A program made the translations under genes and the position numbers. Below, piece after piece: positions 34,746 to 54,131 of a stretch of DNA of 64,000 bases. This DNA comes from Candidatus Peribacter sp. (GTDB taxonomy: Bacteria > Patescibacteriota > Gracilibacteria > Peribacterales > Peribacteraceae), in NCBI GenBank assembly GCA_018652955.1, contig JABIBA010000013.1, positions 55,880 to 119,879 on the forward strand, in the 5' to 3' direction. Below the pieces are notes generated by a model. That model searched no databases. It saw only the letters and a program-made list of their open reading frames with translations, and was not told the origin of the DNA. Position 1 is the first letter of the stretch, and every line of letters starts with the position of its first letter.

Positions 34746-36500
34746 TCAATTAACCTCGTAGACTATAAATCTACCATTCTTGTAAAGAATAGAGGCAGAT
34801 TTTGGTATTTGAATAGCTCTCTCGTCCTTCGTATCTGCCACAAGATATCGTACGTTGTACTTCTTAAGATATTCTTCGTAATTACTATCAATTTCAGCGC
34901 TTAGCTTCAGGGCATTTTGAATGTACGCATCTCCGCCAATCAGATCCATTGGGTCTACGGTAATCTTTTCATTTACGGATCCATCAAGCCCAAAGAGGAA
35001 TGTCTTTGCGACTCCTAGTGGAGTTGTATCTGGATAGGCACTGAGATACCTCAGTGAGTATGTAGGGTTAAGCCCTGCGTAATTCGATACTGACTCTCGT
35101 AAGAATGCTTCGTCGATATGGCCTGAGTAGGCGACGAGGAATCGCTCAAGCAACTCTTCGTCCGGTGCAACATGCAGAGCGGCTCTTGGTGTAAAGAGTA
35201 TGCCATTCGGTGAATAGAGAGGAATGTAAAAACTAAGCATTGGCCCTCCATGCAAGACGGCGTCATGAACACCTTCTTGTTCAAGGGCTGCAAACACATC
35301 TGCAAATCCACTGATATTTTCATGTGCTTCTACAACGCGCTCTTTGTAGGGCGAGAGTGTGTACGAGTAGGAGTTTTTTCTGATGAATGCTCGGTTCACT
35401 GTTGTAAAAATCATCGCTGCAACACACAGAATTATGACCATCTTCTCACACTGTGTTTTTCGCTTAGACAAGCTTTGTATGAGTATTGGGATTGCAACAA
35501 TATTTACCAACAGTGCTAGTCGCCATGGGTGCGTCACAAAATCCATAACCTTACCGGTAATCACATTGCTTGTAGCAGCTATCACCACTGCAGATGTGAG
35601 TAAAAGCAGGAGCGCTTCTTCGGATGAGAAGTGACGACGAAATCTTAGAAGCACTAGAGTGCCAATCAGTACAATGCTGTATTTATTATTATAAATAGTC
35701 AGAGGCAAAACAATGTGTGTATCTATCAAACCAGAGCGTGTATTGATTGCCGAGGCGACAGGATCGGTAAACAAAGAGATTGTTGTGAGGATTTGCGGAA
35801 TGCATGCAACGATAATTCCTACACCCATCATCATCAGAAGCTTGATTGTCTTGGTATCGCGACTAAAGAGAGCATATAAAAAGAAGAGTCCGATGGAGGT
35901 GAAGTTTTGCATCCACAAGTGCGGATACAAGTAGAAGGCAATGGCACTGATAATTCCTAGTGGCACGTATCTCTTAGCTTCATGTGGACTACGTAGCACC
36001 ATGAGTAGTGCAATCATAAATAATCCAAAGACGGGATAGATGGTTTGCATTATTCCTGGCCGAGAAATCAAGTTCGCAAGAGAGGCTATTCCCACGATGG
36101 TTATGAGCGCAGAGACTACGAGTCTTCCTTGTAATATTTTCCTATTCAGTACAAAGATAATGCCTCCAGTAATTGCTGCGTACAATACTGCGTTTATCGC
36201 ATAAACTACATGTATATCAAACCCAAGAAGCCCTGGAATAGACGCTAAATAGATGGGCAATAGAAGGCCGGGGAATGCGCTGTCTCTGTATTCAAGAAAG
36301 TAGGGGTTTCCGAGTGTAGCGTGCCCTGAGAGGACCTGTTGAATGTGTGTCAGGTAGTAGATCGTATCCGTTTCAAGTTGGGGAATAATTGCAGGAATCC
36401 AGCTGCCAAATGTTAGTTTATAAAAGAGAAACGGAACAAAGACAGCGAGGATAGAGCCCAGTATTACCACAGCCCATGAGTACTTCTCTTTTAGTTGCAT
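34746..36500 (-). CDS. Polytopic membrane protein with a C-terminal extracytoplasmic domain (GT-C-like glycosyltransferase/polymerase candidate)
   Basis: 584 aa. Roughly 10-12 hydrophobic helices occupy the first 370 aa, followed by a soluble tail of about 200 aa. It sits beside GT2, GtrA and sugar-nucleotide genes. Confidence 0.65.
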   Translation of the reverse strand: MQLKEKYSWAVVILGSILAVFVPFLFYKLTFGSWIPAIIPQLETDTIYYLTHIQQVLSGHATLGNPYFLEYRDSAFPGLLLPIYLASIPGLLGFDIHVVYAINAVLYAAITGGIIFVLNRKILQGRLVVSALITIVGIASLANLISRPGIMQTIYPVFGLFMIALLMVLRSPHEAKRYVPLGIISAIAFYLYPHLWMQNFTSIGLFFLYALFSRDTKTIKLLMMMGVGIIVACIPQILTTISLFTDPVASAINTRSGLIDTHIVLPLTIYNNKYSIVLIGTLVLLRFRRHFSSEEALLLLLTSAVVIAATSNVITGKVMDFVTHPWRLALLVNIVAIPILIQSLSKRKTQCEKMVIILCVAAMIFTTVNRAFIRKNSYSYTLSPYKERVVEAHENISGFADVFAALEQEGVHDAVLHGGPMLSFYIPLYSPNGILFTPRAALHVAPDEELLERFLVAYSGHIDEAFLRESVSNYAGLNPTYSLRYLSAYPDTTPLGVAKTFLFGLDGSVNEKITVDPMDLIGGDAYIQNALKLSAEIDSNYEEYLKKYNVRYLVADTKDERAIQIPKSASILYKNGRFIVYEVN

Positions 36501-37579
36501 ACTGAACGCATGGTCTCACAGACGTATGCTATTTGCTCGTCTGTAATTGCAAGACCAGAAGGAAGATAGAAACCACGTGCAGATGCATCTTCGGTTACCG
36601 GGAAGCTGTCATCTGTCTGTACGGCAATTGCAGGCTGGCTGTGGCACGGGAGGAAGAACTCGCGTGTATCTACTCCTTTTTCTTTTAGGCGGGCACACAG
36701 CTCATCTCTACCACTTTCTACCATGACGGCATACATCCAGTAGACATGTGTTGCGTAGTCTTTCTCTTGCGGGAGGCGTAAACCTTCTATTCCACTCAAG
36801 CCTTCTTTGTAGAGCGCTGCCATCGAACGTTTTCGTTCGAGTAAGTCATCGATTGCTTCGAGTTGTCCAAGTCCTACTGCAGCTTGCAGGTTAGTAGGGC
36901 GATAGTTAAACCCAAGTTCTTCATGGCGAAACCTCTTGGTCGGTGAGTGTGCAAGATCTTTGAGCCACCGCGCACGCTTCGCAAGCGCATCATCATCTGT
37001 CGTGATCATTCCCCCTTCTCCTGTAGTGATAATTTTATTTCCGTAAAAACTAAAGGCGTTGATGGTTCCAATGGAGCCACATTTTTTTCCTTTGTACTCG
37101 GCTCCATGTACTTCGGCTGCATCTTCGATGATTGCGAGATTATGCTTGGCGGCAATTTCGAGAATTGGATCCATATCACACGGAAGTCCGTAGATGTGCA
37201 CGGGCATTATTGCTTTTGTGCGGTCTGTGATTTTCGCTTCAATTAGCGCTGCATCTATATTCAAAGTTTCTGGATCAATATCGACAAAGACCGGAGTAGC
37301 TCCTGTGTACATCACCGAGAACGGTGAGGCGATCATCGTAAAGTTTGGAATGATCACTTCGTCACCTGGTCCGATATTTAATGTGCGAGCTGCAGTGTGT
37401 AGTGCGGATGTTCCACTGTTTGTAAAGATGGCATGCTTTACTCCAATAAACTTTGCAAAAGCTTCTTCAAATTTTTCTACACATGGACCTGCAGAAGAAA
37501 TCCAACCGGTATCCATTGCGTCTGCTACATACAACTTTGCAGCATCGGTAATCAGTGGTTCGTTTACGGGGACCTTCAT
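36491..37579 (-). CDS. DegT/DnrJ/EryC1-family aminotransferase, GDP-perosamine synthase-like
   Basis: 362 aa starting at MKVPVNEPLI. TGWISSAGPCVEKFEEAF, NSGTSALH, FSFYGNKIITTGEGGMI and NYRPTNLQAAVGLGQLE closely track the Per/RfbE pattern as I recall it. The N-terminal extension of the track ORF is rejected. Confidence 0.8.
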   Translation of the reverse strand: MKVPVNEPLITDAAKLYVADAMDTGWISSAGPCVEKFEEAFAKFIGVKHAIFTNSGTSALHTAARTLNIGPGDEVIIPNFTMIASPFSVMYTGATPVFVDIDPETLNIDAALIEAKITDRTKAIMPVHIYGLPCDMDPILEIAAKHNLAIIEDAAEVHGAEYKGKKCGSIGTINAFSFYGNKIITTGEGGMITTDDDALAKRARWLKDLAHSPTKRFRHEELGFNYRPTNLQAAVGLGQLEAIDDLLERKRSMAALYKEGLSGIEGLRLPQEKDYATHVYWMYAVMVESGRDELCARLKEKGVDTREFFLPCHSQPAIAVQTDDSFPVTEDASARGFYLPSGLAITDEQIAYVCETMRSVCN

Positions 37580-37989
37580 GATGCATCGCGGAATGTTTTC
37601 TCTTTTTCTCGTCCTGGGTATGGACCCTGCTTTACTTCGAGAATGCGTGTTGGCTCTAACATGGTGAGCGCATGTCCGCCCTTTAGAATGACAATGCATT
37701 CGCTGCCATTCACGGTTACTTCTTCGATAACATTCCAATCGTCATCAAATATTTTCACTGCAACGCTACCACTTTGAATCCAGATAAATTCTCCAGGAGG
37801 GGAGAGTTCGACACTCAGTGGATTATGTCTGTGCGGTACTACTTCGTATCCTTCCTCTCTATCAAAAAGCCCTACCTGCAATGGGTCTTCATCTTTTGTA
37901 AAAAATTTCACACCGTTCTCTACTGGTGTATCAGCAGTAAAAACGTGTGCGTAAATCTCTCCGTTATGTTCGATAGTTTGTTGAGACAT
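37576..37989 (-). CDS. Cupin-fold protein (sugar-nucleotide tailoring enzyme candidate)
   Basis: 137 aa. Cupin-like VPHRHNP...GEFIWIQSGSVAVKIFD...VILKGGHAL. ATGA overlap with the aminotransferase. Confidence 0.6.
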   Translation of the reverse strand: MSQQTIEHNGEIYAHVFTADTPVENGVKFFTKDEDPLQVGLFDREEGYEVVPHRHNPLSVELSPPGEFIWIQSGSVAVKIFDDDWNVIEEVTVNGSECIVILKGGHALTMLEPTRILEVKQGPYPGREKEKTFRDAS

Positions 37990-38046
37990 GTAATAAGTAT
38001 AGAGGTGGCTAGGGGGCAGAGGCCAAATCTTGTAAGATAAATCTCA

Positions 38047-38430
38047 ATGAAGAGATTTCTCCCTCATCTCACACGCTTTGCGCTGTATATTTTCAGTGGC
38101 TGTAGTGCGGCTGTGGCCGATATCGGCAGTTATATGCTGATGATTAATATCAATGTCTGGTACATATACGCCTCTATTATCAGTGGAGTTATTGGCTTTA
38201 TAACCGCGTTTTTGCTGCATAAATACATTGTATTTCAGAAGAAAGAGGCGTTTATGCGACACCTTGGAAGGTACTTTGTGGTGGATATGATCAATCTGAG
38301 TATCGTGACTGGCCTCTTGTATGTTTTGGTAGATTTGTGGAGTATGGACCCAATGCCAGCTAAATTCGTTGCTCTTGCCCCTGTAGTTCTCTGGAATTTC
38401 TTTGTGTATAAGTTTGTCGTATATGTCTAA
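38047..38430 (+). CDS. GtrA-family membrane protein (polyprenyl-phosphate sugar translocation candidate)
   Basis: 127 aa with four hydrophobic helices. FALYIFSGCSAAVADIGSY...FLLHKYIVFQKK is typical of the GtrA-like family. Confidence 0.75.
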   Translation: MKRFLPHLTRFALYIFSGCSAAVADIGSYMLMININVWYIYASIISGVIGFITAFLLHKYIVFQKKEAFMRHLGRYFVVDMINLSIVTGLLYVLVDLWSMDPMPAKFVALAPVVLWNFFVYKFVVYV

Positions 38431-38451
38431 ATACGGCTAATATTAGGCTTA

Positions 38452-39510
38452 ATGAGCAAGAAAGCCCTTATCACAGGAATAACAGGACAAGATGGTTCGT
38501 ATCTTGCCGAGTTGCTTATAGAGAAGGGGTATGAGGTACATGGGATAGTTCGTCGTAGCTCTACATTTAATCGTGGTCGTATCGATCATCTTTTCTCTGA
38601 TGAACAAGGTTCAGGAATTCACACAGAGCTTCATTACGGAGACCTTGGAGATGGGAACTCTCTCATTCGTATTCTTTCTGCGGTAAAGCCTGATGAGATT
38701 TATAACTTAGCTGCTCAAAGTCACGTTGCGATTAGTTTTGATATTCCAGAATACACTGGAGATGTAACGGGTATAGGAGCTGCACGACTTCTCGAAGCTG
38801 TTCGGAGTTTGGATCTTGATTCTAAAATTTACCAAGCAAGTTCTTCTGAGTTGTATGGACAAGTACGCGAAACTCCGCAGACAGAAGACACACCGTTCCA
38901 TCCACGCAGTCCGTATGGATGTGCAAAAGCGTACGCGTTTTACATGATGCAAAACTACAGAGAGAGTTACGGAATGTATGCCGTAAATGGAATCTTGTTT
39001 AACCATGAATCTCCACGCAGAGGAAAGAACTTCGTTACACGAAAAATTACCTACACACTTGCAGCTATCGTTGCTGGGAAACAAGAGAAGCTATACCTCG
39101 GTAATCTCGATGCAACGCGTGACTGGGGATACACAAAAGAATACGTCGAAGGAATGTGGCGCATGTTGCAGCAAGACACACCAGAAGATTACGTACTTGC
39201 TACTGGGAAGATGGCATCGGTACGAGATTTCTTAGAGCTCTGTCTTCGTCGCTGTGGTTACACATTTGCACGGCAGGGTGAAGGTATAAATGAAAAGTAC
39301 GTAGACGTCGATACTGGTAAGACTATTGTTGAAATTGATGAGAGATACTATCGCCCAGCAGAAGTAGATCTTTTGTGTGGAGATCCTTCTAAGGCTAAGG
39401 AAAAACTTGGCTGGGAAGCTACAGTGCACATGGAAGGATTGGCGGACATCATGTTGGAGTCTGACTTTGCAAAGATGGGTCTTACACTTCCGTCCACGGT
39501 CGCTGCTTAA
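38452..39510 (+). CDS. gmd: GDP-mannose 4,6-dehydratase
   Basis: 352 aa. [69 protein letters not shown] and [11 protein letters not shown] are all canonical Gmd. Confidence 0.92.
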
Positions 39511-40264
39511 GGTCTTTCGGGTGACCTCCTAGCTTTCCTTTAAACATTGCAGGTCTAAAGATATTTTCGGGTGCATTAAGTACAAAATGTTTTTGCGCTA
39601 TGTCTTCGCGGACAAAGAATGCGTTTACTCCTCTGCAATCCGTTGCGATGAGTGTATATCCTTTTTCTTTTCCAAGTTGAACCAGTGCGCTGAGACTTGC
39701 CCCGTAGTAGTCTGTCTTATCCCACGAAAAGTCTGCCTTATATGGAACAGTCACTGCTGGCTCATAGGGAATGCAGGCGTTGTATTCCATTATTACTACG
39801 CGCGGTGAGTATCCTTCTATTGCCTTCCAGACCCAGTAGTCGTTGCCATCAATATCAATACTGAGCAGATCAAACTCTGTCGGAACGTTATATTTTGCAA
39901 AAAGATTGTTGATGTTCTCTGCAGTAATAAACTCTTGTTTGATGCCGCTCTCTGGCGTGTTTTCTCTTCCATCCATAAGAAGTCCTGTCCAGCCTTTTCG
40001 TGTTAGCTGCTTTGTATTGCACTCTGTTCCGTCTTCAGTTCCAAATTCTACGTAGTATGCATCTGTAGTGCCGATCACTCCAAACAGTGCATGAATCATT
40101 CCGTCTTCCCAGTTCTGGGATGTGACTCTTCGTTCGAAAAGATTGAGATTGGAGATCTGTTTTCCAGTCAGACGATAGAGCCGAAGTGTGATGTGCCAGT
40201 GCAACATGCCAGCTAGCCACTTTGTCGTTTTTTGAACCCGACGCTGCATGCGGTAGGCAATCAT
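39482..40264 (-). CDS. Methyltransferase-like protein (FkbM-related, tentative)
   Basis: [36 protein letters not shown]...[14 protein letters not shown] is a motif set seen in FkbM-type or class I methyltransferases of glycan loci. Start set at the ATG forming an ATGA overlap with the upstream gene. Confidence 0.5.
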
Positions 40265-41565
40265 GCTGTGAGCTCCGTAATAAGTGATACGATGCGTTCT
40301 GTACTCTTTCCATCGAGTAGTGCCCACTCAGACCCTCGTTGCTTTTGCTCACTCACACAGGAGCTGTAATAGGTGTCGTCGTGCAATAGGAGCTCGAAGT
40401 GCGGGAGGAGTTTCTTTTTATCTTTTACTATTTCCGTTCCGGGTGCGCCGTCGTAGACGGGATAATCAAATCCATAGAAATCGATGACTACACTTGGTTT
40501 TGCCATGGCGACAGCTTGAGCTATTACGCTTGAGTAACTGGAAATCACGATGTCGGCTTTTGGCAGCAGTGCATAGATTCTTTCATCAGAAATCTGCAGC
40601 CCTGCCTCATCTGCGAGTGGCTGGTACCATGAACGATCGCTACGTGGATGCAGGTTTAGAATTACCTTTGCTTTAGTGGCTGCGAGAGTCTTAAACAGGA
40701 ACTGCATCTCTTCTTTGTGTTTGTCCCATGGAAGCAAGTCGTGCTCTCCGAAGTTTGGCACAGAACAGAGAATAACTTTCTCAGTGTGTGTATTTTCAGT
40801 AGTGAGCTGTGCAGCAATGTCATCCAGTGAAGGTTTTCCTGTCACTATCATTTTGTCCGCAGACATTCCTTGTTCCAGTAGTTGATTGCGTAGTGCTTCA
40901 CTTTCTACGGCCATCTTGGTTGCCGCACCACCACCAATGATCCACGGCGCCTTCGGCATGATGCCGAGAAGCTTTGCTGCAAGTGCTGTGTACGGAGGCT
41001 GGAAAAAGAGCGGAGTATTTTTGTAGACGAATATCCACGAAGGAAAGATGAATCGTAATAAGTATCGCAGTGGGTTTGAGACTGCATACTGTCCACCACG
41101 CTTGCCAGAGCGCAGCCTTGGTTCTGCAGCAGCTTCACGAAAACTCATTGCAAATGGGACGATCAAACTAGGAATATTATTCTTATTTGCCTGTGCAATG
41201 ACTGCGGTTTCTATCCCGATACTGCGATCTCCAGAAACAACTATAAGACTAATATCTTTGTGTTTCTCCAAGAGTTTTTTGGCACGTCGGCACTCAGATC
41301 GCATCTGCAAGAATCCTTTTGCAAGAGAGGGGAGAAATCGATGAAGTGTGCTCTTGGGAGTGGCTGAGTTTCGACTTTCGACTTTCGGGGTTTGATTTAT
41401 CTCCAGAGGAGATCCATCTGAAGCAATAGCGGGAATATCTCCGATCAGTGTTTGCAGTGGTGCTACCTTTTTATCGAGGCAGAATACTGCATTTGGAATT
41501 GATGTAGCAATTGGAAGCATTTCCAAAAGATTCCCCTTAGATAGCGGAAGAAAGAGGACAACCAT
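40261..41565 (-). CDS. GT-B-like glycosyl/phosphoglycosyl transferase of uncertain family (434 aa)
   Basis: The C-terminal half (VILNLHPRSD...ADIVISSYSSVIAQAVAMAKPSVVIDFYG) resembles the acceptor/donor halves of capsule-type GT-B enzymes. No secure family call. Confidence 0.5.
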   Translation of the reverse strand: MVVLFLPLSKGNLLEMLPIATSIPNAVFCLDKKVAPLQTLIGDIPAIASDGSPLEINQTPKVESRNSATPKSTLHRFLPSLAKGFLQMRSECRRAKKLLEKHKDISLIVVSGDRSIGIETAVIAQANKNNIPSLIVPFAMSFREAAAEPRLRSGKRGGQYAVSNPLRYLLRFIFPSWIFVYKNTPLFFQPPYTALAAKLLGIMPKAPWIIGGGAATKMAVESEALRNQLLEQGMSADKMIVTGKPSLDDIAAQLTTENTHTEKVILCSVPNFGEHDLLPWDKHKEEMQFLFKTLAATKAKVILNLHPRSDRSWYQPLADEAGLQISDERIYALLPKADIVISSYSSVIAQAVAMAKPSVVIDFYGFDYPVYDGAPGTEIVKDKKKLLPHFELLLHDDTYYSSCVSEQKQRGSEWALLDGKSTERIVSLITELTA

Positions 41566-41568
41566 GCC

Positions 41569-42153
41569 TTAGGCAGGGAAGAGATGATCTTCGACGAGTT
41601 CACAGATGAGGTGTTCTATGACGATATGACTCTCTTGTGTGCATTGGGTGTCTTCTCCTGGCACTGCAACGGTGTGTGTAGAGTCACAGGAAAGCCCTGC
41701 ACTTCCTGTTAATCCAATGGTTACGAGACCACGTTTTGCAGCTTCTTCACAAGCGAGTACTACATTTTTTGATGATCCACTGGTAGTAATCCCGAGGAGC
41801 ACATCACCTTCTTTTCCGAGTGCTTCTACCTGACGCGCAAATATTCCTTCGAAGTTGATGTCGTTTGCAAAGGCCGTAAGAAACGATGTATCTGTTGTAA
41901 GAGCTATTGCAGGCAGTGCATCCCTTGGTCGGTCTTTACGAAGTCTGCTAGTAAACTCTGCAGCCATATGTTGTGAATCTGCAGCGCTCCCACCGTTTCC
42001 GCAAATCAATAACTTGTTACCATTTTTAAAGGCAGTGCTGATGAGATCTGCTGCCTCTAGAATACTTGGAATACACTCAGTAGCTACAGCTTCCAAGGTT
42101 TTCGTACTACGTTCCAGATGACTCTGGATGGTGGCGGTGCGTGGATCTGTCAT
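41569..42153 (-). CDS. gmhA: SIS-domain sedoheptulose-7-phosphate isomerase (GmhA family)
   Basis: LLICGNGGSAADSQHMAAEF...RPRDALPAIALTTDTS...NDINFEGIFARQVEALGKEGDVLLGITTSGSSKNV closely tracks E. coli GmhA as I recall it. Confidence 0.8.
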   Translation of the reverse strand: MTDPRTATIQSHLERSTKTLEAVATECIPSILEAADLISTAFKNGNKLLICGNGGSAADSQHMAAEFTSRLRKDRPRDALPAIALTTDTSFLTAFANDINFEGIFARQVEALGKEGDVLLGITTSGSSKNVVLACEEAAKRGLVTIGLTGSAGLSCDSTHTVAVPGEDTQCTQESHIVIEHLICELVEDHLFPA

Positions 42154-42155
42154 GA

Positions 42156-43010
42156 TTATTTTCTGCGAAGCTTTTCTATGATTGGCAGCTCACTATCGTA
42201 GACATGTTTTACTCCATCTCCTCTTGCTTCTTCCCAAGCGCGAATATCACGAACAAGTCGTGCAAATCCTTGTGGCTCGATGGATGCTGGTTGGTCACTT
42301 CCCCACATAGCTCTATCTAAAGTGATGTGACGTTCCACAACTGAAGAGCCAAGTACTGCAGCAGCAAAGCTTGTAGAGAGCCCTACTTCGTGTCCTGAGT
42401 ATCCAACAGGTACTCCGTATTTCTGTGCAAGTACTGGAATCATTGAAAGGTTGAGTTCTTCTAGTTGAGCAGGGTACGTACTTGTTGCGTGAAGAATAAT
42501 AAGGTCTTCTTTACCCAGTACCTCTACTGCGTGGTCGATCTGTTCCTGTGTACTCATTCCTGTAGAGATGATCATTGGTTTATTTTTTGAGCGGTGGTGT
42601 TTTAGAAGCTCATCATCGGTAAGAGATGCAGAGGCAATCTTGTAACATGGTGGGTCGAATGCATCGATGAAATCGACAGCTCCTTCGTCCCAACATGAGG
42701 CAAGCCACATGATACCTTTTTCTTTGCAGTAACTATCAATCTCTCCATATTCTGCTTCGCCAAACTCTAAGCCACGTTTTAGATCTCCGTTAGTATCACC
42801 AAAAGGATTCTCTCGTGGTCGTGCAAGCTCTTCTTCTGTGTAGACTACTTCTACTGTGCGTTTTTGGAATTTTACAGCGTTGCATCCAGCTTCTGCTGAT
42901 GCATCAATAAGCTGCTTTGCAATTTTCATATCACCATTGTGGTTGATACCAATTTCTGCGATAACCAAGCATGCTTCGTTTGGGCCTATGGTGTGATTTC
43001 CAATTTTCAT
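42156..43010 (-). CDS. NeuB-family PEP-condensing ulosonic-acid synthase, lacking the C-terminal SAF domain
   Basis: 284 aa. CLVIAEIGINHNGDMKIAKQLIDASAEAGCNAVKFQ, YKIASASL, MIISTGMST, YSGHEVG and VERHITLD. It ends where the TIM barrel ends. Confidence 0.85.
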   Translation of the reverse strand: MKIGNHTIGPNEACLVIAEIGINHNGDMKIAKQLIDASAEAGCNAVKFQKRTVEVVYTEEELARPRENPFGDTNGDLKRGLEFGEAEYGEIDSYCKEKGIMWLASCWDEGAVDFIDAFDPPCYKIASASLTDDELLKHHRSKNKPMIISTGMSTQEQIDHAVEVLGKEDLIILHATSTYPAQLEELNLSMIPVLAQKYGVPVGYSGHEVGLSTSFAAAVLGSSVVERHITLDRAMWGSDQPASIEPQGFARLVRDIRAWEEARGDGVKHVYDSELPIIEKLRRK

Positions 43011-43032
43011 GCAGGAGTAGTGTGCCTATGTA

Positions 43033-43866
43033 TTATCGGACAGTCCACCCACCATCTACAGAAATTCCTTGGCCTGTTATATAGCTTCCAGCATCAGAAG
43101 AAAGCAGTAAAAGGGCTCCAATTAGCTCTCTGGGCACTCCTGTGCGACCGAGACAGGTTTTGTCGTTCAAGACTTTTAGGAAGGGGGCATTTGGATCAAC
43201 GGCATTTGCTCCAGTTCCTTCAGTATTTGCGAAGGGTCCTGGGTGGATGGCATTTACACGAATGCCATGCTCTCCCCAGAAGGATGCCGCATATCTGGTG
43301 AGCTGCATAAGAGCTGCTTTTGCAGAGCCATATCCTGCAGGGTTCATCTTATCAGTTCCTCTATAGAGTGCAGGGTCTGGAGCAACAATCGAGTACATCG
43401 TGCATGTATTTATTATACTTCCGTTACCCTTCTCTTTCATTCCAGGGAACACTGCTTGCATTGCAAGGACAGGTCCTGTCATTCCCCCAGAAAGATTATT
43501 GTTAAAGTGTTCAAGTGGTGCAGTTTCGAGTGCCGCACCCGGTTGGTTAAACCCACAACCTGGTCCCATCTCGTGTGCGTTATTGACGAGCACATCGACA
43601 GTACCTGTTTTTGCTACTGCTTCACCGAGAGTGTTTTTAAGAACGTCTGTGTCGTACATGTCGACGGTGTATCCATCGACTTGTGCCTCTCCAAATTCAT
43701 TTGCGAGTTCTGTTTTTAAAGCCTCCAGTTTTTCTGATCTTCCAAATAGAATAACCTTCGCATCATTTTCTACAAGTGAACGTGCCATTTCGGAGCCTAG
43801 AAAACCAGATGCTCCTGTGAGGAGAACAGTTTTACCTTGAAGAGAAAAGAGATCTGAAGCTTTCAT
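43033..43866 (-). CDS. Short-chain dehydrogenase/reductase
   Basis: TGASGFLGSEM and YGSAK motifs. Start set at MKASDL so as not to overlap the upstream gene. Confidence 0.8.
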   Translation of the reverse strand: MKASDLFSLQGKTVLLTGASGFLGSEMARSLVENDAKVILFGRSEKLEALKTELANEFGEAQVDGYTVDMYDTDVLKNTLGEAVAKTGTVDVLVNNAHEMGPGCGFNQPGAALETAPLEHFNNNLSGGMTGPVLAMQAVFPGMKEKGNGSIINTCTMYSIVAPDPALYRGTDKMNPAGYGSAKAALMQLTRYAASFWGEHGIRVNAIHPGPFANTEGTGANAVDPNAPFLKVLNDKTCLGRTGVPRELIGALLLLSSDAGSYITGQGISVDGGWTVR

Positions 43867-43882
43867 AAGAGTACGGGGAAGA

Positions 43883-44683
43883 TTACCAGCAAGTACGGCC
43901 ACCATCGACAACAAGATTTTGTCCGGTCATATACGATGAAGCATCACTGCAAAGAAATAGCACTGCACCTTGGTACTCTGTCTCTTGTGCCATGCGACCA
44001 AGTGGAATGCGTGAAGAAATATCTTTAACAAATTCTGGAGGCTGACTTGTGTATACGCCACCAGGAGAAAGTGCGTTTACGCGAACGTGTGGGCAGTAAT
44101 AGGTGGAGAAGTATTTTGTAAGACCGACAAGCCCTGCTTTTGCCACACTGTATGTTACAGGTTTTACAGCTTGCTCATCTTCGGGCACACCTTCTTTTCT
44201 ATAGAGTCTTTGGTCGGGGGCTGACACAGAAAGCTCTGACGCAATATTTAAGATCACACCAGACTTTTGTTTCATCATCTGTTCACCAAATGCTTGAACA
44301 CAGAGGAACGCACCGAGAAGACCAACATTCAAATCATCTACCCACTGCTCGAGAGGGAAGTTGCTTACGCGAGAGAAGTTTACCTTTGCGCCTGCTTCTA
44401 CTTTCGGGTTATTTGCTGCGTTATTGACGAGGATATCTACCTTCCCATATTTTCCCATTACGGTTTCAAATGCTTGTTGTACAGAGTCTTGGTCTGCGAT
44501 GTTGGTTTCTATAAATAGCGCATCAAGTTCATCAGCGATCTTCTGACCACTTTCTGCGTTATGTTCCAGAATAACAGGGATACCACCAGCTGCTTTAATG
44601 GCCTCGCAGTGCCGTCTTCCCAAAAGTCCTCCACCGCCTGTTACGACAGCGACGCGTCCTGTGAGGTCAAATAGCGTATTCAT
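43883..44683 (-). CDS. Short-chain dehydrogenase/reductase
   Basis: VTGGGGLLG, NNAA and YSVAKAG motifs. Confidence 0.85.
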   Translation of the reverse strand: MNTLFDLTGRVAVVTGGGGLLGRRHCEAIKAAGGIPVILEHNAESGQKIADELDALFIETNIADQDSVQQAFETVMGKYGKVDILVNNAANNPKVEAGAKVNFSRVSNFPLEQWVDDLNVGLLGAFLCVQAFGEQMMKQKSGVILNIASELSVSAPDQRLYRKEGVPEDEQAVKPVTYSVAKAGLVGLTKYFSTYYCPHVRVNALSPGGVYTSQPPEFVKDISSRIPLGRMAQETEYQGAVLFLCSDASSYMTGQNLVVDGGRTCW

Positions 44684-44696
44684 CGGGCGAATTGTA

Positions 44697-45524
44697 TCAC
44701 GCTACGCCAAATGTCTGCGTTGAAAAAGTGTGATATTTGCGTATTTGCTCTACTTCTTTCCCTTCTTCTCCACGAGCCCCCTGGAGCGTAAACAGTCCGT
44801 CAAACTGCAGTCGGTCGAGTTCTTCTTTTACCGCTGCGAAGTCTGTATCACCTGTACCGAGTTCTACGGTGGAGCTGTTGAGTATGCGGTCTTTGATGTG
44901 CACACTACCAAGATGTTCCCCGTAGGCGGCAAGTTCTTCTTTGGGGTTATACCCCATCCCTGCACTGTTACCGGTGTCGTACGTTACTTTTACGCTTGGG
45001 TGATTGATTTGCTTCAGGAAGTACACAAAATTTTCTGGATCAAGTGACGTCTCTAGGTGGAGTTCCATATCTAACTTCTCCAGTACTGGAAGAATCGATT
45101 GTAGAGCAAGAGCTGCTTGGTCGATTTCTTCTTTGGTATTGAGGGCAGAGTTATCGAGAAATGGAATTCCAAGATGCGCAGCGCCTACTTTTTTTGCTTG
45201 ATGAAATAGAAGGTCTAAAAGCTGTAGTCGCTCTTCACGTTCTTGCTCTGTGCAACGAACAAGCGGCTCTTCCATAAACGAGTCTGCACAAATAGATGGA
45301 ATAGCAACACCGTACTTCTTCATCAGCGCTAACATCTCCTCTACTCCTTCATCTGTTCTAAGTGGAGTGATATCTGCTCCGTATGTATCATCAATCCATT
45401 CTATATTTGGAACACCTGCTTGCGCAGCACACGCAAATTCCTCTCGCCACGAATTTCTTGGGAACGATTGGAACCGTCCATCTTCTTGAGGGCTTAGTCG
45501 ATTATGCATTACTGCAAGTTTCAT
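44697..45524 (-). CDS. Xylose-isomerase-like TIM-barrel sugar (phosphate) isomerase/epimerase
   Basis: 275 aa. HLETSLDP...VTYDTGNSAG...HIKDR is the pattern of the AP_endonuc_2 / sugar epimerase fold. Confidence 0.7.
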   Translation of the reverse strand: MKLAVMHNRLSPQEDGRFQSFPRNSWREEFACAAQAGVPNIEWIDDTYGADITPLRTDEGVEEMLALMKKYGVAIPSICADSFMEEPLVRCTEQEREERLQLLDLLFHQAKKVGAAHLGIPFLDNSALNTKEEIDQAALALQSILPVLEKLDMELHLETSLDPENFVYFLKQINHPSVKVTYDTGNSAGMGYNPKEELAAYGEHLGSVHIKDRILNSSTVELGTGDTDFAAVKEELDRLQFDGLFTLQGARGEEGKEVEQIRKYHTFSTQTFGVA

Positions 45525-46687
45525 TATTTCTTGGCGGCTAATAACTTGTCACTGAATTCGCGAACAGCACCTTGGCCGCCTGGTGTGGATAGCACTATGC
45601 GAGCAGCGCCAAGTACAGATGGGTCTGCATCTGCAACAACAACAGGGAAACCCACCATGTGCAGACACTCTAAATCGTTCATGTCATTACCGAGGTAGGC
45701 AACTTTGGAAGCATCGATATTTTCTTTCTGGAGATACTCCGTAAGATACTTTGCTTTGTTGCCGATGCCTTGATGACATGGAAGCTGTAACTTTTCGCAT
45801 CGCAGCTTTACGATCGGATGTTTCTCTGTAGAGAGAACAATCATTGGAATGTTTGCATCGCGGAGATGATCTATTCCTAATCCGTCACTGCGGTTGCAAC
45901 GGACAAACTCATCACCATTTTCTGTGACTTCTACTTTGTTGTCGGTCATTACTCCATCAAAATCAAATACGACGAGTTCGATGTCGCTTGGCCAGTCGGC
46001 TTTGTCTTGTCGTACAATCCATCGTACGAGGTCTACTTGCTGTGCAGTATCTACTTGGAACGAGTGAAACTCGTCCATTAAATATACACTGGTCTTTCCG
46101 CCAAGGCGGTTGCCTTTTTCCCTAAGGAGAGAGGTTTTAGTGACATAGAGTGATCCGTTTTCTCTGTACTGTTCTTCCATATCTTGCTCACGTTTTCGAG
46201 TTTCGTAATCGTAATTTAACGATTTCAAACCATCTGATGCTTTGTTCCAAATAAGTGCGTAGTTTCTGCAGGCAGAAAAGATAGAATCTACATCTTCATC
46301 AATCAGTTGTTGAATAGCATTGTCGATATCATCTTCTTTGCGCACGGGTGATGTGCATTGTAAAAAGACGACGAGGTCTGGGTCTTCTTTTCCTTGTTTC
46401 TTTCGTTCATCAAGTACATGCAGCAAAGCAGATTCACTTGTTGCTGTAGCTGATGCAAGTTCCTCTGTTCGCGTAATAACTTCTGCACCGTACTTTTTTG
46501 CTTCGCGTGTAATCTCTGCATCTTCTGTAGAGACAATCACTTCATCAACAAGCTTTGCGCTGCGCGCGTGCAATATGCTGTGTGCCAAAATTGGAATACC
46601 GGCGAGTGGTAGTAAGTTTTTCCCAGGGATACGTTCGGACCCTCCGCGGGCAGGGATGATTACGATGACGGAAATGTCGGTGCTCAT
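45524..46687 (-). CDS. Fusion of an acylneuraminate-type cytidylyltransferase (N-terminal) and a KdsC-like HAD sugar-acid phosphatase (C-terminal)
   Basis: N-terminus: VIIPARGGSERIPGKNLLPLAGIPILAHSI (CMP-sugar synthetase). C-terminus: VVFDFDGVMTDNKV...SDGLGI...YLGNDMNDL...GGQGAVREF (KdsC/YrbI-type HAD). Confidence 0.85.
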   Translation of the reverse strand: MSTDISVIVIIPARGGSERIPGKNLLPLAGIPILAHSILHARSAKLVDEVIVSTEDAEITREAKKYGAEVITRTEELASATATSESALLHVLDERKKQGKEDPDLVVFLQCTSPVRKEDDIDNAIQQLIDEDVDSIFSACRNYALIWNKASDGLKSLNYDYETRKREQDMEEQYRENGSLYVTKTSLLREKGNRLGGKTSVYLMDEFHSFQVDTAQQVDLVRWIVRQDKADWPSDIELVVFDFDGVMTDNKVEVTENGDEFVRCNRSDGLGIDHLRDANIPMIVLSTEKHPIVKLRCEKLQLPCHQGIGNKAKYLTEYLQKENIDASKVAYLGNDMNDLECLHMVGFPVVVADADPSVLGAARIVLSTPGGQGAVREFSDKLLAAKK

Positions 46688-50562: not shown

Positions 50563-51498
50563 TTAAGATTTAGGATGGGGATCTTTGGGGACACCACTAA
50601 TAGTAAGGCTATCAATGCCGTCACGTTCTAGCTGCTCGTACCACGGTAGAATATTTGGAACAAAGAAGAATGAGACGATATCACGGAATGCTTTTCGTGG
50701 AGCAACTGCACGGTGGAAGAAGTTTTGATCTAAGATTGTTGCATCTCCAGCATTAGCGTCGTTATGGAATGGTCGGTATGGAAGCTTGTGTTCTTTTGCA
50801 AAGTCTTGCAGGTCTGCGTAGCGTTCATCAAGTTGCTGTCCAAAGTATCCTGCATCGCGGTACGCCATTGTATCTTCGCGGTTCATGAGTTGTGTTGCAC
50901 CGGTATCTTCCATCGCCTCTGTAAGATGCAGAAATAATTTGCAGGTGTGTGGTGGAAAAGAATCCGAATGCCAGAACCATGAGCCGGCAATAGCTTCAGA
51001 TGGAACAGAGCGGTAACACGTTGCCCATTCGATACGATAGTTACTCTGAAAGAAATTCAGCAATGCCGCATTAACAGCAGGTGTGTGCAGTACGTCGAGC
51101 AAGTCTTCACCTAAAGTAATAAGCGGCTGCTTGATACCAATAGAAAGACCACTTGCATCTTTATAGTCTACGGATGGATCTTTTTGTTCAATGAGCGCAG
51201 AAATCTTATCCACATGTGCTTTTGCTCTTTGCGCTGGGAATGCATTTTGTACAAGTGTTCCACCATCTACGATGAGAGGTGATATATCGAAGTTTTGTTC
51301 CCCATTTAGGTCTTTGTAGTGCTTTTTACATTCAGCAGCGTAGCGTACGTAGGTTCTATTAATTCGTGGTGGGAGCGTATTATTGTATTTTCTGTAATAG
51401 TGCCGAGAACGCTGTATGTGCTTGAGAACTGAATCTGCCACTGTATGAAGTACCTTCATCATGGACTGCAGTCTATGGTTCACCTCAATAGTGTGCAA
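50563..51498 (-). CDS. Fe(II)/2-oxoglutarate dioxygenase, PhyH-like (tentative)
   Basis: WHSD (H-x-D) and a distal FFHRA His, then RDIVSF. TTG start in the track; the first ATG is at 51462. Confidence 0.55.
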   Translation of the reverse strand: MHTIEVNHRLQSMMKVLHTVADSVLKHIQRSRHYYRKYNNTLPPRINRTYVRYAAECKKHYKDLNGEQNFDISPLIVDGGTLVQNAFPAQRAKAHVDKISALIEQKDPSVDYKDASGLSIGIKQPLITLGEDLLDVLHTPAVNAALLNFFQSNYRIEWATCYRSVPSEAIAGSWFWHSDSFPPHTCKLFLHLTEAMEDTGATQLMNREDTMAYRDAGYFGQQLDERYADLQDFAKEHKLPYRPFHNDANAGDATILDQNFFHRAVAPRKAFRDIVSFFFVPNILPWYEQLERDGIDSLTISGVPKDPHPKS

Positions 51499-53429: not shown

Positions 53430-54131
53430 ATGGGAGTACTTGCAATTATCCCTGCTAGGGCAGGTTCGAAAACTATTCGGCATAAGAATATTCAGCTCGT
53501 AGGCGGAAAACCGCTTATCGTGCATTCTATCGAACACGGGCTTAAGAGCGGTTTAATCGATCGCGTGATCGTAAGTACCGACAGCGAAGAGTATGCAGAA
53601 CTTGCAAGGGCTGCAGGTGCTGAAGTTCCGTTTATGCGACCAGAGGAACTTGCAGGAGACCTCTCTACTGATCTTGAAACATTTAAACATGCATTGGAGT
53701 GGCTAAAAGAGCATGAAGACTATCACCCAGAGATTTGTGTAAACCTTCGCCCAACATTTCCATTACGAAAAATAGAAGACGTTGATGCTGTTGTTGCACT
53801 TCTGAAAGATCAGGAGAATCTTGATAGTGTTCGCAGCGTAGTTCCTGCATTGCACACGCCATACAAAATGTGGTTTACCGATGCGGATGGTACATTAAAG
53901 CCGATCATAGAACATGACATTGATGATGCACATAACCTGCCGCGTCAGGCCTTACCGAAGACCTATTTACAGAACGCTTGTATCGATGCAGTGCGCTCAT
54001 CAGTAATTCTTGAAAAAGATTCGATGTCGGGTGATACAATCTATGGGTATCACATGGAAGATTTCTTTGATATTGATACACCAGAAGACCTTAAGCGTGC
54101 GAACGAAGCACTTTCCCTTCTCCTAAAATGA
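53430..54131 (+). CDS. Acylneuraminate-type cytidylyltransferase (CMP-ulosonic acid synthetase)
   Basis: LAIIPARAGSKTIRHKNIQLVGGKPLIVHSIE is the typical NeuA/PseF/LegF/KdsB-like N-terminus. Confidence 0.85.
   Translation: MGVLAIIPARAGSKTIRHKNIQLVGGKPLIVHSIEHGLKSGLIDRVIVSTDSEEYAELARAAGAEVPFMRPEELAGDLSTDLETFKHALEWLKEHEDYHPEICVNLRPTFPLRKIEDVDAVVALLKDQENLDSVRSVVPALHTPYKMWFTDADGTLKPIIEHDIDDAHNLPRQALPKTYLQNACIDAVRSSVILEKDSMSGDTIYGYHMEDFFDIDTPEDLKRANEALSLLLK

Follow-up and report, generated by a model that had tools for sequence, protein, structure and literature searches.

Candidatus Peribacter is a tiny uncultured groundwater bacterium, and the window (the whole 64-kb stretch of its DNA that was analysed) contains an operon that encodes a complete, uncharacterised predicted route to a CMP-activated sialic-acid-like sugar. 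ORF analysis combined with Pfam and NCBIfam domain assignment places six tightly packed genes on the minus strand, from 46687 to 41569 (Table 1). In the 5'->3' direction they encode a cytidylyltransferase-HAD phosphatase fusion (CTP::HAD), a xylose-isomerase-fold protein, SDR1, SDR2, a NeuB synthase lacking the SAF domain, and a GmhA-type isomerase. A preliminary description had listed the same proteins as co-directional and near-contiguous, and all were found where it had placed them; its count of seven genes should be corrected to six. Together with the co-oriented, overlapping or abutting genes on either side, which encode an FkbM-type methyltransferase at one end and a GT-B transferase at the other, they form an operon of at least eight genes. 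From FkbM, whose stop overlaps the start of the CTP::HAD gene, to GT-B, the successive gaps and overlaps are -4, -1, 13, 16, 22, 2, and 3 nt; the 2-nt gap lies between neuB and the downstream gmhA, which occupies the same position in other Peregrinibacteria, and GT-B follows gmhA after 3 nt. The catalytic motifs of NeuB, HAD, GmhA, and both SDRs are intact. Since NeuB homologues in many phyla are surrounded by the same genes, the arrangement is not due to chance.

Table 1. Genes of the operon and its flanks, with window positions and domain evidence
Feature	Position	Strand	Evidence
FkbM-family methyltransferase, 278 aa	46684..47520	-	PF05050 + TIGR01444 above cutoff
CTP::HAD bifunctional protein, 387 aa	45524..46687	-	CTP_transf_3 + KdsC/YrbI-type HAD
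Xylose-isomerase-like TIM-barrel protein, 275 aa	44697..45524	-	PF01261 (AP_endonuc_2) 82 bits
Classical SDR oxidoreductase 1, 266 aa	43883..44683	-	adh_short/adh_short_C2; TGGGGLLG / YxxxK
Classical SDR oxidoreductase 2, 277 aa	43033..43866	-	adh_short/adh_short_C2
SAF-less NeuB-family PEP-condensing synthase, subfamily I, 284 aa	42156..43010	-	PF03102 257 bits
GmhA-type SIS isomerase, 194 aa	41569..42153	-	SIS_2; gmhA TIGR00441
GT-B-like transferase, 434 aa	40261..41565	-	weak Pfam: Glyphos_transf, A-2_8-polyST

The window also holds a transferase-rich 34-kb glycan island, and it encodes GDP-mannose-using enzymes. A precedent within the window for coupling an isomerase to a synthase is a second NeuB, at 54128-55630, which has a cupin-type aldose-ketose isomerase domain as its fusion partner.

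In the synthase of the operon, Pfam detects only the NeuB domain (aa 34-268), which bears out its earlier description as SAF-less; neither Pfam nor NCBIfam gives a SAF match, and the protein scores under the NCBIfam equivalog cutoffs for NeuB and PseI. Modelled with AF2, it adopts the NeuB TIM barrel (TM 0.80-0.83 to 6ncs, 8h2c, and 1xuu), a fold common to DAHP and Kdo8P synthases, and sequence comparison indicates that the metal and PEP residues are preserved. The same comparison reveals a Lys-Arg dyad after strand beta2 (KFQKRT) that the synthase has in common with the BT1714-type enzyme, which uses Man-6-P, and that is lacking in NeuB, PseI, and SpsE, which use ManNAc or 6-deoxy sugars. The synthase has over 8000 homologues that are 70-90% identical, and it falls into a very large, highly conserved, and uncharacterised group of SAF-less NeuB proteins (subfamily I; 61-77% identity, more than 10 phyla). 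The most conserved motif specific to this subfamily lies in the alpha2-beta2 loop, which in human NanS favours a phosphorylated substrate (PMC8208679). The Streptomyces Kdn/teichulosonic-acid cluster has its NeuB in the sister group, subfamily II (58-59% identity). In Chloroflexia and Acidimicrobiia, a single locus can hold members of both subfamilies, which are thus probably not redundant. Chloroflexia also possess a NeuB+SAF+AP_endonuc_2 fusion.

The best NCBIfam matches of the isomerase are phosphoheptose isomerase/gmhA models, just under the equivalog cutoffs (TIGR00441, 178 bits vs. a cutoff of 209), and it scores 157 bits against Burkholderia pseudomallei GmhA (2xbl). PGAP names it D-sedoheptulose 7-phosphate isomerase. 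In agreement with its initial likening to that enzyme, the canonical GmhA catalytic and binding motifs are preserved (GGSxxDxQH...E...SR, TTDTS, TSGxS, and QExH...H); unlike the KdsD type, it contains no CBS domains according to Pfam. On the basis of motif conservation, enzymes of its clade are assumed to prefer sedoheptulose-7-P over fructose-6-P. No GHMP kinase, PfkB/HldE, GmhB, or PF00483 nucleotidyltransferase turned up when essentially every ORF of 150 aa or longer in the window was scanned against Pfam, which confirms the earlier remark that heptose-activation partners are not visible there. Such genes are likewise not among the common families of 11 SIS-containing loci, and no gmhA or heptose entry is listed in the annotation table for Ca. 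Peribacter riflensis, whose complete genome is itself devoid of the module.

The fusion protein consists of an N-terminal NeuA/PseF-like cytidylyltransferase (aa 8-223, with CTP_transf_3 at aa 8-181/223; nt about 46019-46666) and a C-terminal KdsC/YrbI-family HAD phosphatase (aa 225-386; nt about 45530-46015). The former reaches 93.9 bits for CTP_transf_3 and 126.6 bits for PseF vs. about 47-73 bits for KdsB models; among PDB entries it scores 92-108 bits with NeuA/CMAS and up to 42 bits with KdsB. The HAD half gives 110.9 bits with the KdsC model and 140 bits with its best PDB match, 3mmz. The DxD nucleophile, on which the proposed phosphatase role had been made to depend, is found (DFDGV). 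At the positions of Glu56 and Lys67 in the Kdn-9-P phosphatase BT1713 (PMC6200933), the HAD half likewise has Glu and Lys; in E. coli KdsC they are occupied by Arg and Thr. Together, the type of the CTP domain and the Glu/Lys pair support activation with CMP of a long acid as the predicted function.

In NCBIfam, SDR1 is matched best by PtmA and by models of the sugar-acid dehydrogenase-like kind, each of them under cutoff. The SDR2 ORF extends to a TTG at 43914; inspection of the start favours the ATG at 43866 (277 aa). The TIM-barrel protein, which matches L-ribulose-5-P 3-epimerase and D-tagatose 3-epimerase only weakly, is a putative sugar(-phosphate) or keto-acid epimerase/isomerase. The FkbM enzyme, whose type is found repeatedly in related loci, probably O-methylates a sugar or glycan. 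The GT-B protein (Glyphos_transf, 34 bits; A-2_8-polyST, 24.9 bits with a cutoff of 23.3) may transfer or polymerise the CMP-sugar, a tentative assignment because BLAST finds no similarity between it and the polyST-like protein of Streptomyces.

Both the module and its sub-modules are conserved across phyla. The comparison set comprises 82 loci with a subfamily-I NeuB from about 80 other genomes, each fetched with about 10 kb on either side; 27 of the loci are CMP-type, meaning that they encode a CMP-transferase. A KdsC-type HAD adjoins the subfamily-I NeuB in 71 of the 82, and the CTP::HAD fusion occurs in 10 other loci. Homologues of SDR1 (47-69% identity) are encoded in 24/82 related loci and those of the TIM-barrel protein in 22/82, with SDR2 homologues (46-55%) in a subset. 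Two thirds of the CMP-type loci (18/27) have a GmhA homologue no more than 10 kb away; these 18 belong to Peregrinibacteria, Chloroflexota, Actinomycetota, Gemmatimonadota, Myxococcota, Nitrospirota, and Acidobacteriota, and the homologue is also present in minimal loci without TIM and SDR genes. In the other third, as in most TPP-type loci, gmhA is missing from that interval. Moreover, five Myxococcota loci encode a KdsC-HAD::GmhA fusion in a single ORF, with DVDG and GmhA motifs intact, and no further KdsC-type HAD was detected in these loci as fetched. These fusions probably stem from a single event.

It is therefore well supported that the operon forms a CMP-ulosonic acid by a phosphorylated route: the HAD adjacency, the recurrence of GmhA, and the fusions all fit the order already proposed, namely isomerase, PEP condensation on a sugar phosphate, phosphatase, and CMP activation. 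The Lys-Arg dyad and the alpha2-beta2 loop of the synthase also speak for a phosphorylated substrate. The accompanying claim that this logic is reproduced with non-orthologous parts was overstated, as HAD, cytidylyltransferase, and synthase are homologous to Kdn/sialic enzymes (BT1713-like, NeuA-like, and NeuB family, respectively) and the isomerase alone is foreign. All substrates and products, the order of tailoring, and the acceptor are inferred. The GmhA-type enzyme would isomerise sedoheptulose-7-P, a pentose-phosphate intermediate, yielding D-glycero-D-manno-heptose-7-P, which the synthase would condense with PEP to 3-deoxy-dec-2-ulosonate 10-phosphate, a homologue of Kdn-9-P longer by one carbon. 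The HAD half would then strip the terminal phosphate and the NeuA-like half would form the CMP-sugar. SDR1, SDR2, and the xylose-isomerase-fold enzyme may serve as an optional set that oxidises, epimerises or isomerises, and reduces either the free acid or a sugar-phosphate precursor; the downstream GT-B enzyme would transfer the CMP-sugar residue and the FkbM enzyme would methylate it. In Peribacteria glycolysis runs via the pentose phosphate pathway (PMC4736985), so sedoheptulose-7-P should be plentiful.

The use of heptose-7-P to give a C10 acid is the best-supported reading, with about an even chance of being correct. The gmhA-neuB adjacency, the recurrence of gmhA in CMP-type loci, the HAD::GmhA fusions, and the lack of heptose-activation genes in the window speak for it. 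That the product is not simply Kdn is suggested by the Kdn loci of subfamily II, which lack SIS, TIM, and SDR genes, and by the coexistence of both subfamilies. Against a C10 product, the nearest genetically anchored relative makes Kdn (C9), and the Kdn-9-P-type HAD residues suit a C9 acid equally well; the loci with no gmhA nearby, the probable single origin of the Myxococcota fusions, and the sub-cutoff gmhA scores of the isomerase also weigh against it. The main rival, possible though rather improbable, is a Kdn-type C9 product: NeuB would condense PEP with Man-6-P (or another hexose-6-P) to a C9 acid 9-phosphate, which HAD and CTP would turn into CMP-Kdn, the SDR/TIM set would epimerise it to a Kdn isomer, and the GmhA homologue would make Man-6-P from Fru-6-P, an equivalent 'manno' reaction on a chain shorter by one carbon, or be a passenger. 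Besides the 58-59% identity to the Streptomyces synthase and the Glu/Lys pair, it is favoured by the apparent presence of the CTP::HAD fusion in Streptomyces, by minimal CTP + HAD + NeuB loci (e.g., L004 of Bacteroidota), and by the GDP-mannose-using enzymes, which imply that mannose phosphates are present. It must contend, however, with single loci that hold both subfamilies, an invariant subfamily-I alpha2-beta2 loop unlike those of subfamily II and BT1714, Streptomyces Kdn loci without an SIS gene, and fully canonical GmhA motifs; phosphomannose isomerase activity is not known from any GmhA-family enzyme.

Glycan loci often mix genes for several sugars, and the island is rich in transferases; gmhA, labelled by PGAP as an ordinary sedoheptulose-7-P isomerase, might thus serve a separate heptose-glycan pathway whose kinase, phosphatase, and nucleotidyltransferase lie elsewhere, sharing the operon only because heptose and ulosonic acid enter the same surface polymer. 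This is unlikely given the KdsC-HAD::GmhA fusions, the position of gmhA beside subfamily-I NeuB in at least six phyla with common neighbours that include no heptose-activation genes, the lack of such genes in the window, and the Ca. Peribacter riflensis annotation. Very improbable is the use of a shorter universal aldose phosphate (erythrose-4-P, arabinose-5-P/ribose-5-P), leading to a C7 or C8 3-deoxy-ulosonic acid of the DAH/Dha/Kdo type. The fold shared with DAHP and Kdo8P synthases, KpsS/KpsC-like (Capsule_synth) proteins near related modules, and NeuB-I + HAD without a dedicated isomerase in most TPP-type loci are compatible with it, and the TPP-type acid may be an acyl donor, a C7 acid then giving a caryophyllose-like skeleton. 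The cytidylyltransferase is nevertheless unlike KdsB, the HAD residues are of the Kdn-9-P rather than the Kdo-8-P type, and the isomerase best matches gmhA and lacks KdsD-type CBS domains.

If the C10 reading is true, the operon makes a ten-carbon acid sugar without any characterised pathway; no report of a non-aminated C10 ulosonic acid, free or glycan-bound, was found in the literature. A reported CMP-linked alpha-keto acid sugar with a backbone of more than nine carbons proves that such sugars exist, but its two N-acetyl groups and one O-acetyl group indicate a Leg/Pse-like diamino sugar; no genes are tied to the compound and nothing links it to the Peribacter module. Nucleotide-heptose pathways (GmhA-HldE/HddA-GmhB-HldC/HddC) share a canonical-looking GmhA as first enzyme, but their kinase, GmhB, and nucleotidyltransferase are missing from the window and not common in related loci, and the GmhA of the module is fused to or beside a KdsC-type phosphatase and a NeuB synthase. 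The Kdo pathway (KdsD-KdsA-KdsC-KdsB) has the same four steps, from ketose-P isomerase to CMP activation, and a KdsC-family HAD; the operon, however, has a NeuB-fold enzyme instead of KdsA, a GmhA-type isomerase instead of KdsD (SIS+CBS), and a NeuA-like enzyme instead of KdsB.

Closer is the CMP-Kdn pathway of Bacteroides thetaiotaomicron, formed by the Kdn-9-P synthase BT1714, the phosphatase BT1713, and the CMP-Kdn synthetase BT1715 (PMC6200933), with an equivalent in Prymnesium parvum. There, as predicted for the operon, a NeuB-family enzyme condenses PEP with a sugar phosphate, and the two systems share the synthase dyad, a KdsC-family HAD with Glu56/Lys67-type residues, and a NeuA-like cytidylyltransferase. 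The BT1714-type enzyme differs in having 346 aa and a SAF domain (34% identity to the window synthase), the pathway has no isomerase, SDR, or TIM-barrel genes, and in the Peribacter operon phosphatase and cytidylyltransferase are fused. The Streptomyces teichulosonic-acid (Kdn polymer) cluster SCO4873-SCO4882 (including SCO4879-4881; NeuA SCO4880, NeuB SCO4881) has a SAF-less NeuB of about 310 aa, directly upstream of it a KdsC-type HAD of the 3mmz type, and a sialyltransferase-like GT-B; in the Streptomyces locus L087, the HAD is apparently the C-terminal part of a longer ORF with a putative CTP half. Its NeuB belongs, however, to subfamily II, the alpha2-beta2 loops differ (WGRMTYIDYRHRVEF vs. 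FGDTNGDLKRGLEF), GmhA, TIM-barrel, and SDR genes are lacking, and its product is Kdn (C9) according to genetics and polymer chemistry.

Eight genes in one orientation occupy positions 47520 to 40261 of the minus strand (see table) and are spaced, in order, by -4, -1, 13, 16, 22, 2, and 3 nt. All the proteins that the preliminary description listed for the interval 41569-46687 are present there, encoded by six genes rather than seven. The specific NCBIfam equivalog cutoffs for NeuB, PseI, PseF, KdsC, and gmhA are all missed by the operon proteins, some of them narrowly; thus, none of them qualifies as a textbook orthologue. Identical window proteins were found by exact-sequence look-up on up to 47 contigs. 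Promoter and terminator scans of the window gave a signal no different from that of shuffled sequence. Homology of the downstream glycosyltransferase to the Streptomyces polysialyltransferase-like protein was considered and rejected, as BLAST similarity is absent.

Coordinates of the operon genes, of further features of the window, and of gene fusions at related loci
Feature	Location	Strand	Remarks
Operon gene 1		-	FkbM methyltransferase
Operon gene 2	45524-46687	-	387-aa CTP_transf_3 cytidylyltransferase fused to a KdsC/YrbI-type HAD phosphatase (CTP::HAD)
Operon gene 3	44697-45524	-	AP_endonuc_2 (xylose-isomerase-like) TIM-barrel protein
Operon genes 4-5		-	two classical SDRs (SDR1, SDR2)
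Operon gene 6	42156-43010	-	284 aa, NeuB domain alone
Operon gene 7		-	194-aa SIS_2 protein; top models gmhA/phosphoheptose isomerase
Operon gene 8		-	434-aa GT-B-like protein; weak CDP-glycerol glycerophosphotransferase and polysialyltransferase family matches
ORF overlapping the end of operon gene 8	39482-40327	-	281 aa; no Pfam match
ORF	350-4393	-	1347 aa; no Pfam match
Polytopic membrane protein	34746-36500	-	584 aa; no Pfam match
ORF	50563-51498	-	no Pfam match
GDP-mannose-4,6-dehydratase-family genes (two)	31705-33926, 36491-39510
Second ulosonic module	53430-55630 (+), 55627-56415 (-), 56495-57973 (+), 61677-63152 (-)
CysD-like protein	57987-58892		PAPS_reduct family
CysN/CysC fusion	58895-60715
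Sulfotransferase	60712-61680
NeuB+SAF+AP_endonuc_2 fusion	L013:18813-20747 (also L021:16231-18126, L048:17175-18509)		Chloroflexia
KdsC-family HAD::GmhA fusions	L017:14417-15553, L020:11553-12686, L022:14352-15530, L081:14386-15519, L052:7247-9085		Myxococcota

The synthase belongs to the NeuB family (PF03102, 257 bits across the full profile), and the metal-, PEP-, and sugar-binding set of N. meningitidis NeuB (E25, K53, Q55, K129, Y186, H215, E234, H236, and D247) is kept in full, aligning with E19, K47, Q49, K124, Y179, H207, E226, H228, and D239 of the window protein. In canonical NeuB, PseI, LegI, and NANS, a C-terminal SAF (antifreeze-like) domain provides the partner subunit with substrate-binding residues, e.g., Arg314. 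The window NeuB, described from the start as SAF-less, indeed has no SAF match and ends 16 residues after its NeuB domain, carrying in place of SAF the conserved tail GDGVKxVYxSExPxxxKLRR. Its scores lie below the cutoffs for both N-acetylneuraminate synthase (TIGR03569, 247.6 bits, cutoff 399.65) and pseudaminic acid synthase (TIGR03586, 203.8 bits, cutoff 340.25). The AF2 model (pLDDT 84) gives TM values of 0.80-0.83 to NeuB and PseI structures, and its pLDDT falls below 50 only at residues 67-79 and 234-241, where the two most invariant family motifs lie (FGxTNGDLKR and AMWGSDQP). In the model, these low-confidence loops are consistent with mobile, substrate-gated lids. The α2-β2 loop of human NanS favours a phosphorylated substrate (PMC8208679), and it is in the same α2-β2 region that the two subfamilies defined below differ, residues 67-79 of the window protein being the invariant loop there. 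According to a 2021 survey, which assigned them no function, approx. 30% of bacterial NeuB sequences lack SAF and are environmental (PMC8208679); a characterised SAF-less NeuB was not found in the literature searched.

Among the matches listed, more than 8000 database proteins match the window NeuB at E <1e-136; the listed relatives are approx. 289 aa long, contain the NeuB domain only, are 70-90% identical, and come from sources that include Peregrinibacteria, Planctomycetota, Bacteroidota, Verrucomicrobiota, Chloroflexota, and Acidobacteriota. At least 596 loci were identified in GTDB species genomes, and 80 of them were fetched (designated L0xx). Alignment and a neighbour-joining tree split the relatives into two subfamilies. 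Subfamily I (NeuB-I), to which the window protein belongs, has the invariant motifs KFQKRT, RPRE(N/S)PFGxTNGDLK(R/Y)GLEF, ASCWDE, and DRAMWGSD and, at its C-terminus, the GDGVK...KLRR tail. In subfamily II, identity is 55-59% and the loop reads (T)PWGxxTYxDYRxxVEF. A Lys-Arg dyad after β2 is common to both subfamilies and the BT1714 type, and is missing in NeuB, PseI, SpsE, and the Leptospira SAF-less NeuB 6ncs. The window NeuB was ruled out as an orthologue of BT1714 (Kdn-9-P synthase): the protein used for this comparison, encoded next to BT1713 (99% identical P0121), is a 346-aa NeuB+SAF protein and only 34% identical. In Streptomyces, subfamily II genes lie in the order GT2, DUF6716 (NeuE-like), KdsC-type HAD, and NeuB, which is that of SCO4878-SCO4881 in the teichulosonic-acid (Kdn-galactose polymer) cluster (PMC3479208, PMC13011467, PMC11481543); at one Streptomyces locus (L087), the HAD seems to form the C-terminal portion of a longer ORF, which may be a CTP::HAD fusion. 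Unlike the window operon, these Kdn loci contain no SIS gene. Both subfamilies occur together in single loci (L013, L015, L048, and L037), which argues for a NeuB-I substrate other than that of the Streptomyces Kdn-type paralogue. In Chloroflexia loci, subfamilies I and II are joined by a third NeuB paralogue, a 645-aa NeuB+SAF+AP_endonuc_2 fusion.

Co-occurrence was counted in 82 loci by searching every six-frame ORF with the window proteins (BLAST), because called ORFs are incomplete in high-GC loci. A KdsC-type HAD adjoins NeuB-I in 71 of the 82, and two mutually exclusive architectures can be distinguished. Type A (n=27) contains a CTP_transf_3 gene, fused to the HAD in 10 loci, together with the TIM-barrel protein in 15 and SDR1 in 17; in 18/27 of these loci, drawn from Peregrinibacteria, Chloroflexota, Actinomycetota, Gemmatimonadota, Myxococcota, Nitrospirota, and Acidobacteriota, a GmhA homologue (≥110 bits) is no further than 10 kb away. 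Type B (n=40) lacks the cytidylyltransferase and has an acetolactate-synthase/YerE-like TPP enzyme immediately after NeuB-HAD, as well as glucose-1-P cytidylyltransferase, CDP-glucose 4,6-dehydratase, and RfbH, each above its NCBIfam equivalog cutoff. The type B ulosonic acid may serve as a decarboxylative acyl (acyl-anion) donor in the synthesis of a branched higher sugar resembling yersiniose or caryophyllose. Type B makes up approx. half of the loci (L033 and 39 others, e.g., L046, L059, and L060); the Syntrophus locus L033:6519-19701 (chromosome OY762510.1) lies beside flgE and includes four radical-SAM/SPASM genes and a C-methyltransferase. Minimal type A loci have GmhA without TIM and SDR genes (L034, L037, L052, L062, and L065), whereas GmhA is missing at L011, L018, and L036, which do have TIM and SDR genes; the latter are also present in some type B loci. 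GmhA is therefore part of the core, and the TIM-barrel protein and SDRs are a separable tailoring cassette.

The window isomerase gives 157 bits to B. pseudomallei GmhA (2xbl), with which its QH..E, SR, TTDTS, TSGSS, and QESH...EH motifs align; the Zn/catalytic His-Glu-Gln-His set and the phosphate-binding Ser/Thr loops are intact. It narrowly misses gmhA TIGR00441 (178.1 bits, cutoff 209.45) and is also below cutoff for PRK13936 (180.8 bits, cutoff 276), near misses being usual among divergent CPR proteins. In five Myxococcota loci, a single ORF beside subfamily-I NeuB consists of an N-terminal KdsC-family HAD with an intact DVDG motif (80-96 bits to KdsC models) and a GmhA part at the C-terminus (189-207 bits), and no other KdsC-type HAD was detected in these fetched loci. 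The HAD part matches KdsC/Kdn-9-P phosphatase models, the GmhB model not being among the matches; steps one and three of the proposed route would thus be joined in one polypeptide. As noted initially, the usual heptose-activation partners are missing from the window: Pfam scans of the 64 kb, covering essentially all ORFs ≥150 aa, found no GHMP kinase, PfkB/HldE, GmhB, or PF00483 nucleotidyltransferase. Heptose kinase, GmhB, and nucleotidyltransferase are also absent among the 25 commonest families of 11 related loci, a weak negative because GC3-filtered ORF calling still under-called the high-GC loci. According to its annotation tables, the complete genome of Ca. Peribacter riflensis encodes an ordinary 351-aa NeuB and PseI, lacks the module, and has no gmhA or heptose entry; being module-less, it serves only as a negative control.

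In the CTP::HAD fusion protein, the HAD half retains motifs I-IV of the KdsC/YrbI family (DFDGV, S/T, K, and GNDMND), including the DxD nucleophile on which the original proposal had been made to depend; it scores 110.9 bits against KdsC PRK09484 and is borderline for TIGR01670 (106.1 bits, cutoff 106.95). Glu56 and Lys67 of BT1713 (an E56A structure exists, 4hgq) correspond to Glu and Lys in this half but to Arg and Thr in E. coli KdsC; these we take to be the positions that distinguish Kdn-9-P from Kdo-8-P phosphatases. The cytidylyltransferase half (PF02348, 93.9 bits) is NeuA/PseF-like, with 126.6 bits to PseF (below the equivalog cutoff of 205.7) versus 47-73 bits to KdsB models and, in a PDB search, 92-108 bits to NeuA/CMAS versus up to 42 bits to KdsB.

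Both SDRs carry TGxxxGxG and YxxxK motifs, and their best models, all below cutoff, are sugar-acid dehydrogenases (gluconate-5-DH, KduD, and mannonate oxidoreductase) and, weakly, PtmA. The SIS/SDR pair was rejected as analogues of PtmF/PtmA from the Campylobacter legionaminic pathway, since PtmF is a 326-aa oxidoreductase and not a SIS protein and the match of the SDRs to the PtmA model is weak (104 bits, cutoff 350). The TIM-barrel protein has faint similarity to L-ribulose-5-P 3-epimerase, D-tagatose 3-epimerase, and MJ1311, and its family is tied to NeuB-type synthases by the Chloroflexia fusion; PDB sequence searches with it and the SDRs gave generic or very weak matches only. The occurrence of these genes in both CMP-type and TPP-type loci suggests that they act before the pathways diverge, on the free acid or a sugar-phosphate precursor. 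As the simplest guess, the set would oxidise, epimerise, and then reduce its substrate.

From 30 kb on, the window is a glycan island, with two GDP-mannose-dehydratase-family genes, a DegT aminotransferase, a C-methyltransferase, GT2 and GT4 transferases, and an ABC exporter. One dehydratase gene pairs with the sugar C-methyltransferase (Methyltransf_14) and the other, of perosamine type, lies close to the DegT aminotransferase and to a small cupin-like ORF; several unusual deoxy sugars are thus predicted from one island. The second ulosonic module, independent of the operon, has a 233-aa CTP_transf_3 cytidylyltransferase that overlaps by 4 nt a 500-aa NeuB fusion (54128-55630), followed by a methyltransferase and two Capsule_synth (KpsS/KpsC-like) proteins. 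This second NeuB is fused to a Cupin_2/D-lyxose-isomerase-like domain, without SAF and with no HAD nearby; it may follow a non-phosphorylated route, e.g., from fructose via mannose to Kdn, and its presence makes the coupling of ketose-to-aldose isomerase and NeuB synthase a recurring design. The sulfate-activation genes and the sulfotransferase gene also lie inside the island and suggest that this CPR bacterium makes a sulfated surface glycan.

Taken as a general scheme, the operon very probably encodes a phosphorylated route to a CMP-ulosonic acid. Within that scheme, the view that the synthase condenses heptose-7-P to a C10 acid is evenly poised. It is supported by the GmhA association and GmhA fusions, the canonical GmhA motifs of the window isomerase, the absence of heptose-activation genes from the window and (a weak negative) from common neighbours, the coexistence of subfamilies I and II in one locus while Streptomyces Kdn loci lack SIS genes, and the lack of gmhA/heptose annotation in module-less Ca. 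Peribacter riflensis. In addition, glycolysis of Peribacteria runs via the pentose phosphate pathway (PMC4736985), and sedoheptulose-7-P should therefore be available. A hexose-6-P substrate yielding a C9 (Kdn-like) acid is rather unlikely; in its favour are the nearest anchored relative, which makes Kdn, HAD residues of the Kdn-9-P type, and minimal CTP/HAD/NeuB loci that have no gmhA nearby. The Lys-Arg dyad and the HAD adjacency bear indirectly on mannose-6-P use by the window NeuB. It is improbable that gmhA is a passenger gene. For a gene present about once per genome, occurrence within some 20 neighbouring genes in 18/27 loci is far above chance, although related genomes are not independent. 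Shorter acids (C7 or C8) are very improbable, as the cytidylyltransferase is NeuA-like rather than KdsB-like, the HAD residues are not of the KdsC type, and the isomerase is GmhA-type rather than KdsD-type.

If heptose-7-P is the substrate, the product, by analogy with Kdn, would be 3-deoxy-D-erythro-D-galacto-dec-2-ulosonic acid, a name that assumes NeuB-type facial selectivity; the literature searched contains no description of a deculosonic or other ten-carbon ulosonic acid. It is proposed tentatively, with somewhat more doubt than belief, that NeuB-I proteins are heptose-7-P:PEP synthases which, with GmhA and a KdsC-type phosphatase, form a widespread, unrecognised pathway to 3-deoxy-dec-2-ulosonic (C10) acids, which would have two fates. 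Such a pathway would extend to thousands of subfamily sequences, from CPR bacteria to Acidobacteria and Chloroflexi; its product would be CMP-activated for glycan assembly, as in the window, or, in approx. half of the loci, passed to the YerE-like thiamine-diphosphate enzyme, with a CDP-3,6-dideoxyhexose pathway alongside, to give very large branched sugars. The widespread NeuB-I module is annotated throughout as "N-acetylneuraminate synthase", so that a large body of automatic annotation would be corrected. The pathway would also widen the chemical range of bacterial glycans, open genetic access to "higher-carbon ulosonic acids", whose detection by mass spectrometry has just begun, and supply enzymes for the chemo-enzymatic synthesis of sialic-acid analogues. 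Even on the conservative reading, a NeuB subfamily emerges that is large, uncharacterised, and accompanied by a modular set of tailoring genes.

CMP-activated ulosonic acids (Kdo, sialic, legionaminic, and pseudaminic acids, and Kdn) are key surface sugars, and to our knowledge all characterised pathways to them end at eight or nine carbons. The module, common in uncultured and environmental bacteria, would add a ten-carbon homologue made by a three-enzyme core of GmhA, NeuB-I, and KdsC-type HAD. As first proposed, it follows the same logic as the Kdo and Kdn/Neu5Ac-9-P routes. The further idea that this logic is reproduced with non-orthologous parts applies to the isomerase, borrowed from heptose metabolism, and not to the HAD, cytidylyltransferase, and synthase, which are homologues of Kdn enzymes.
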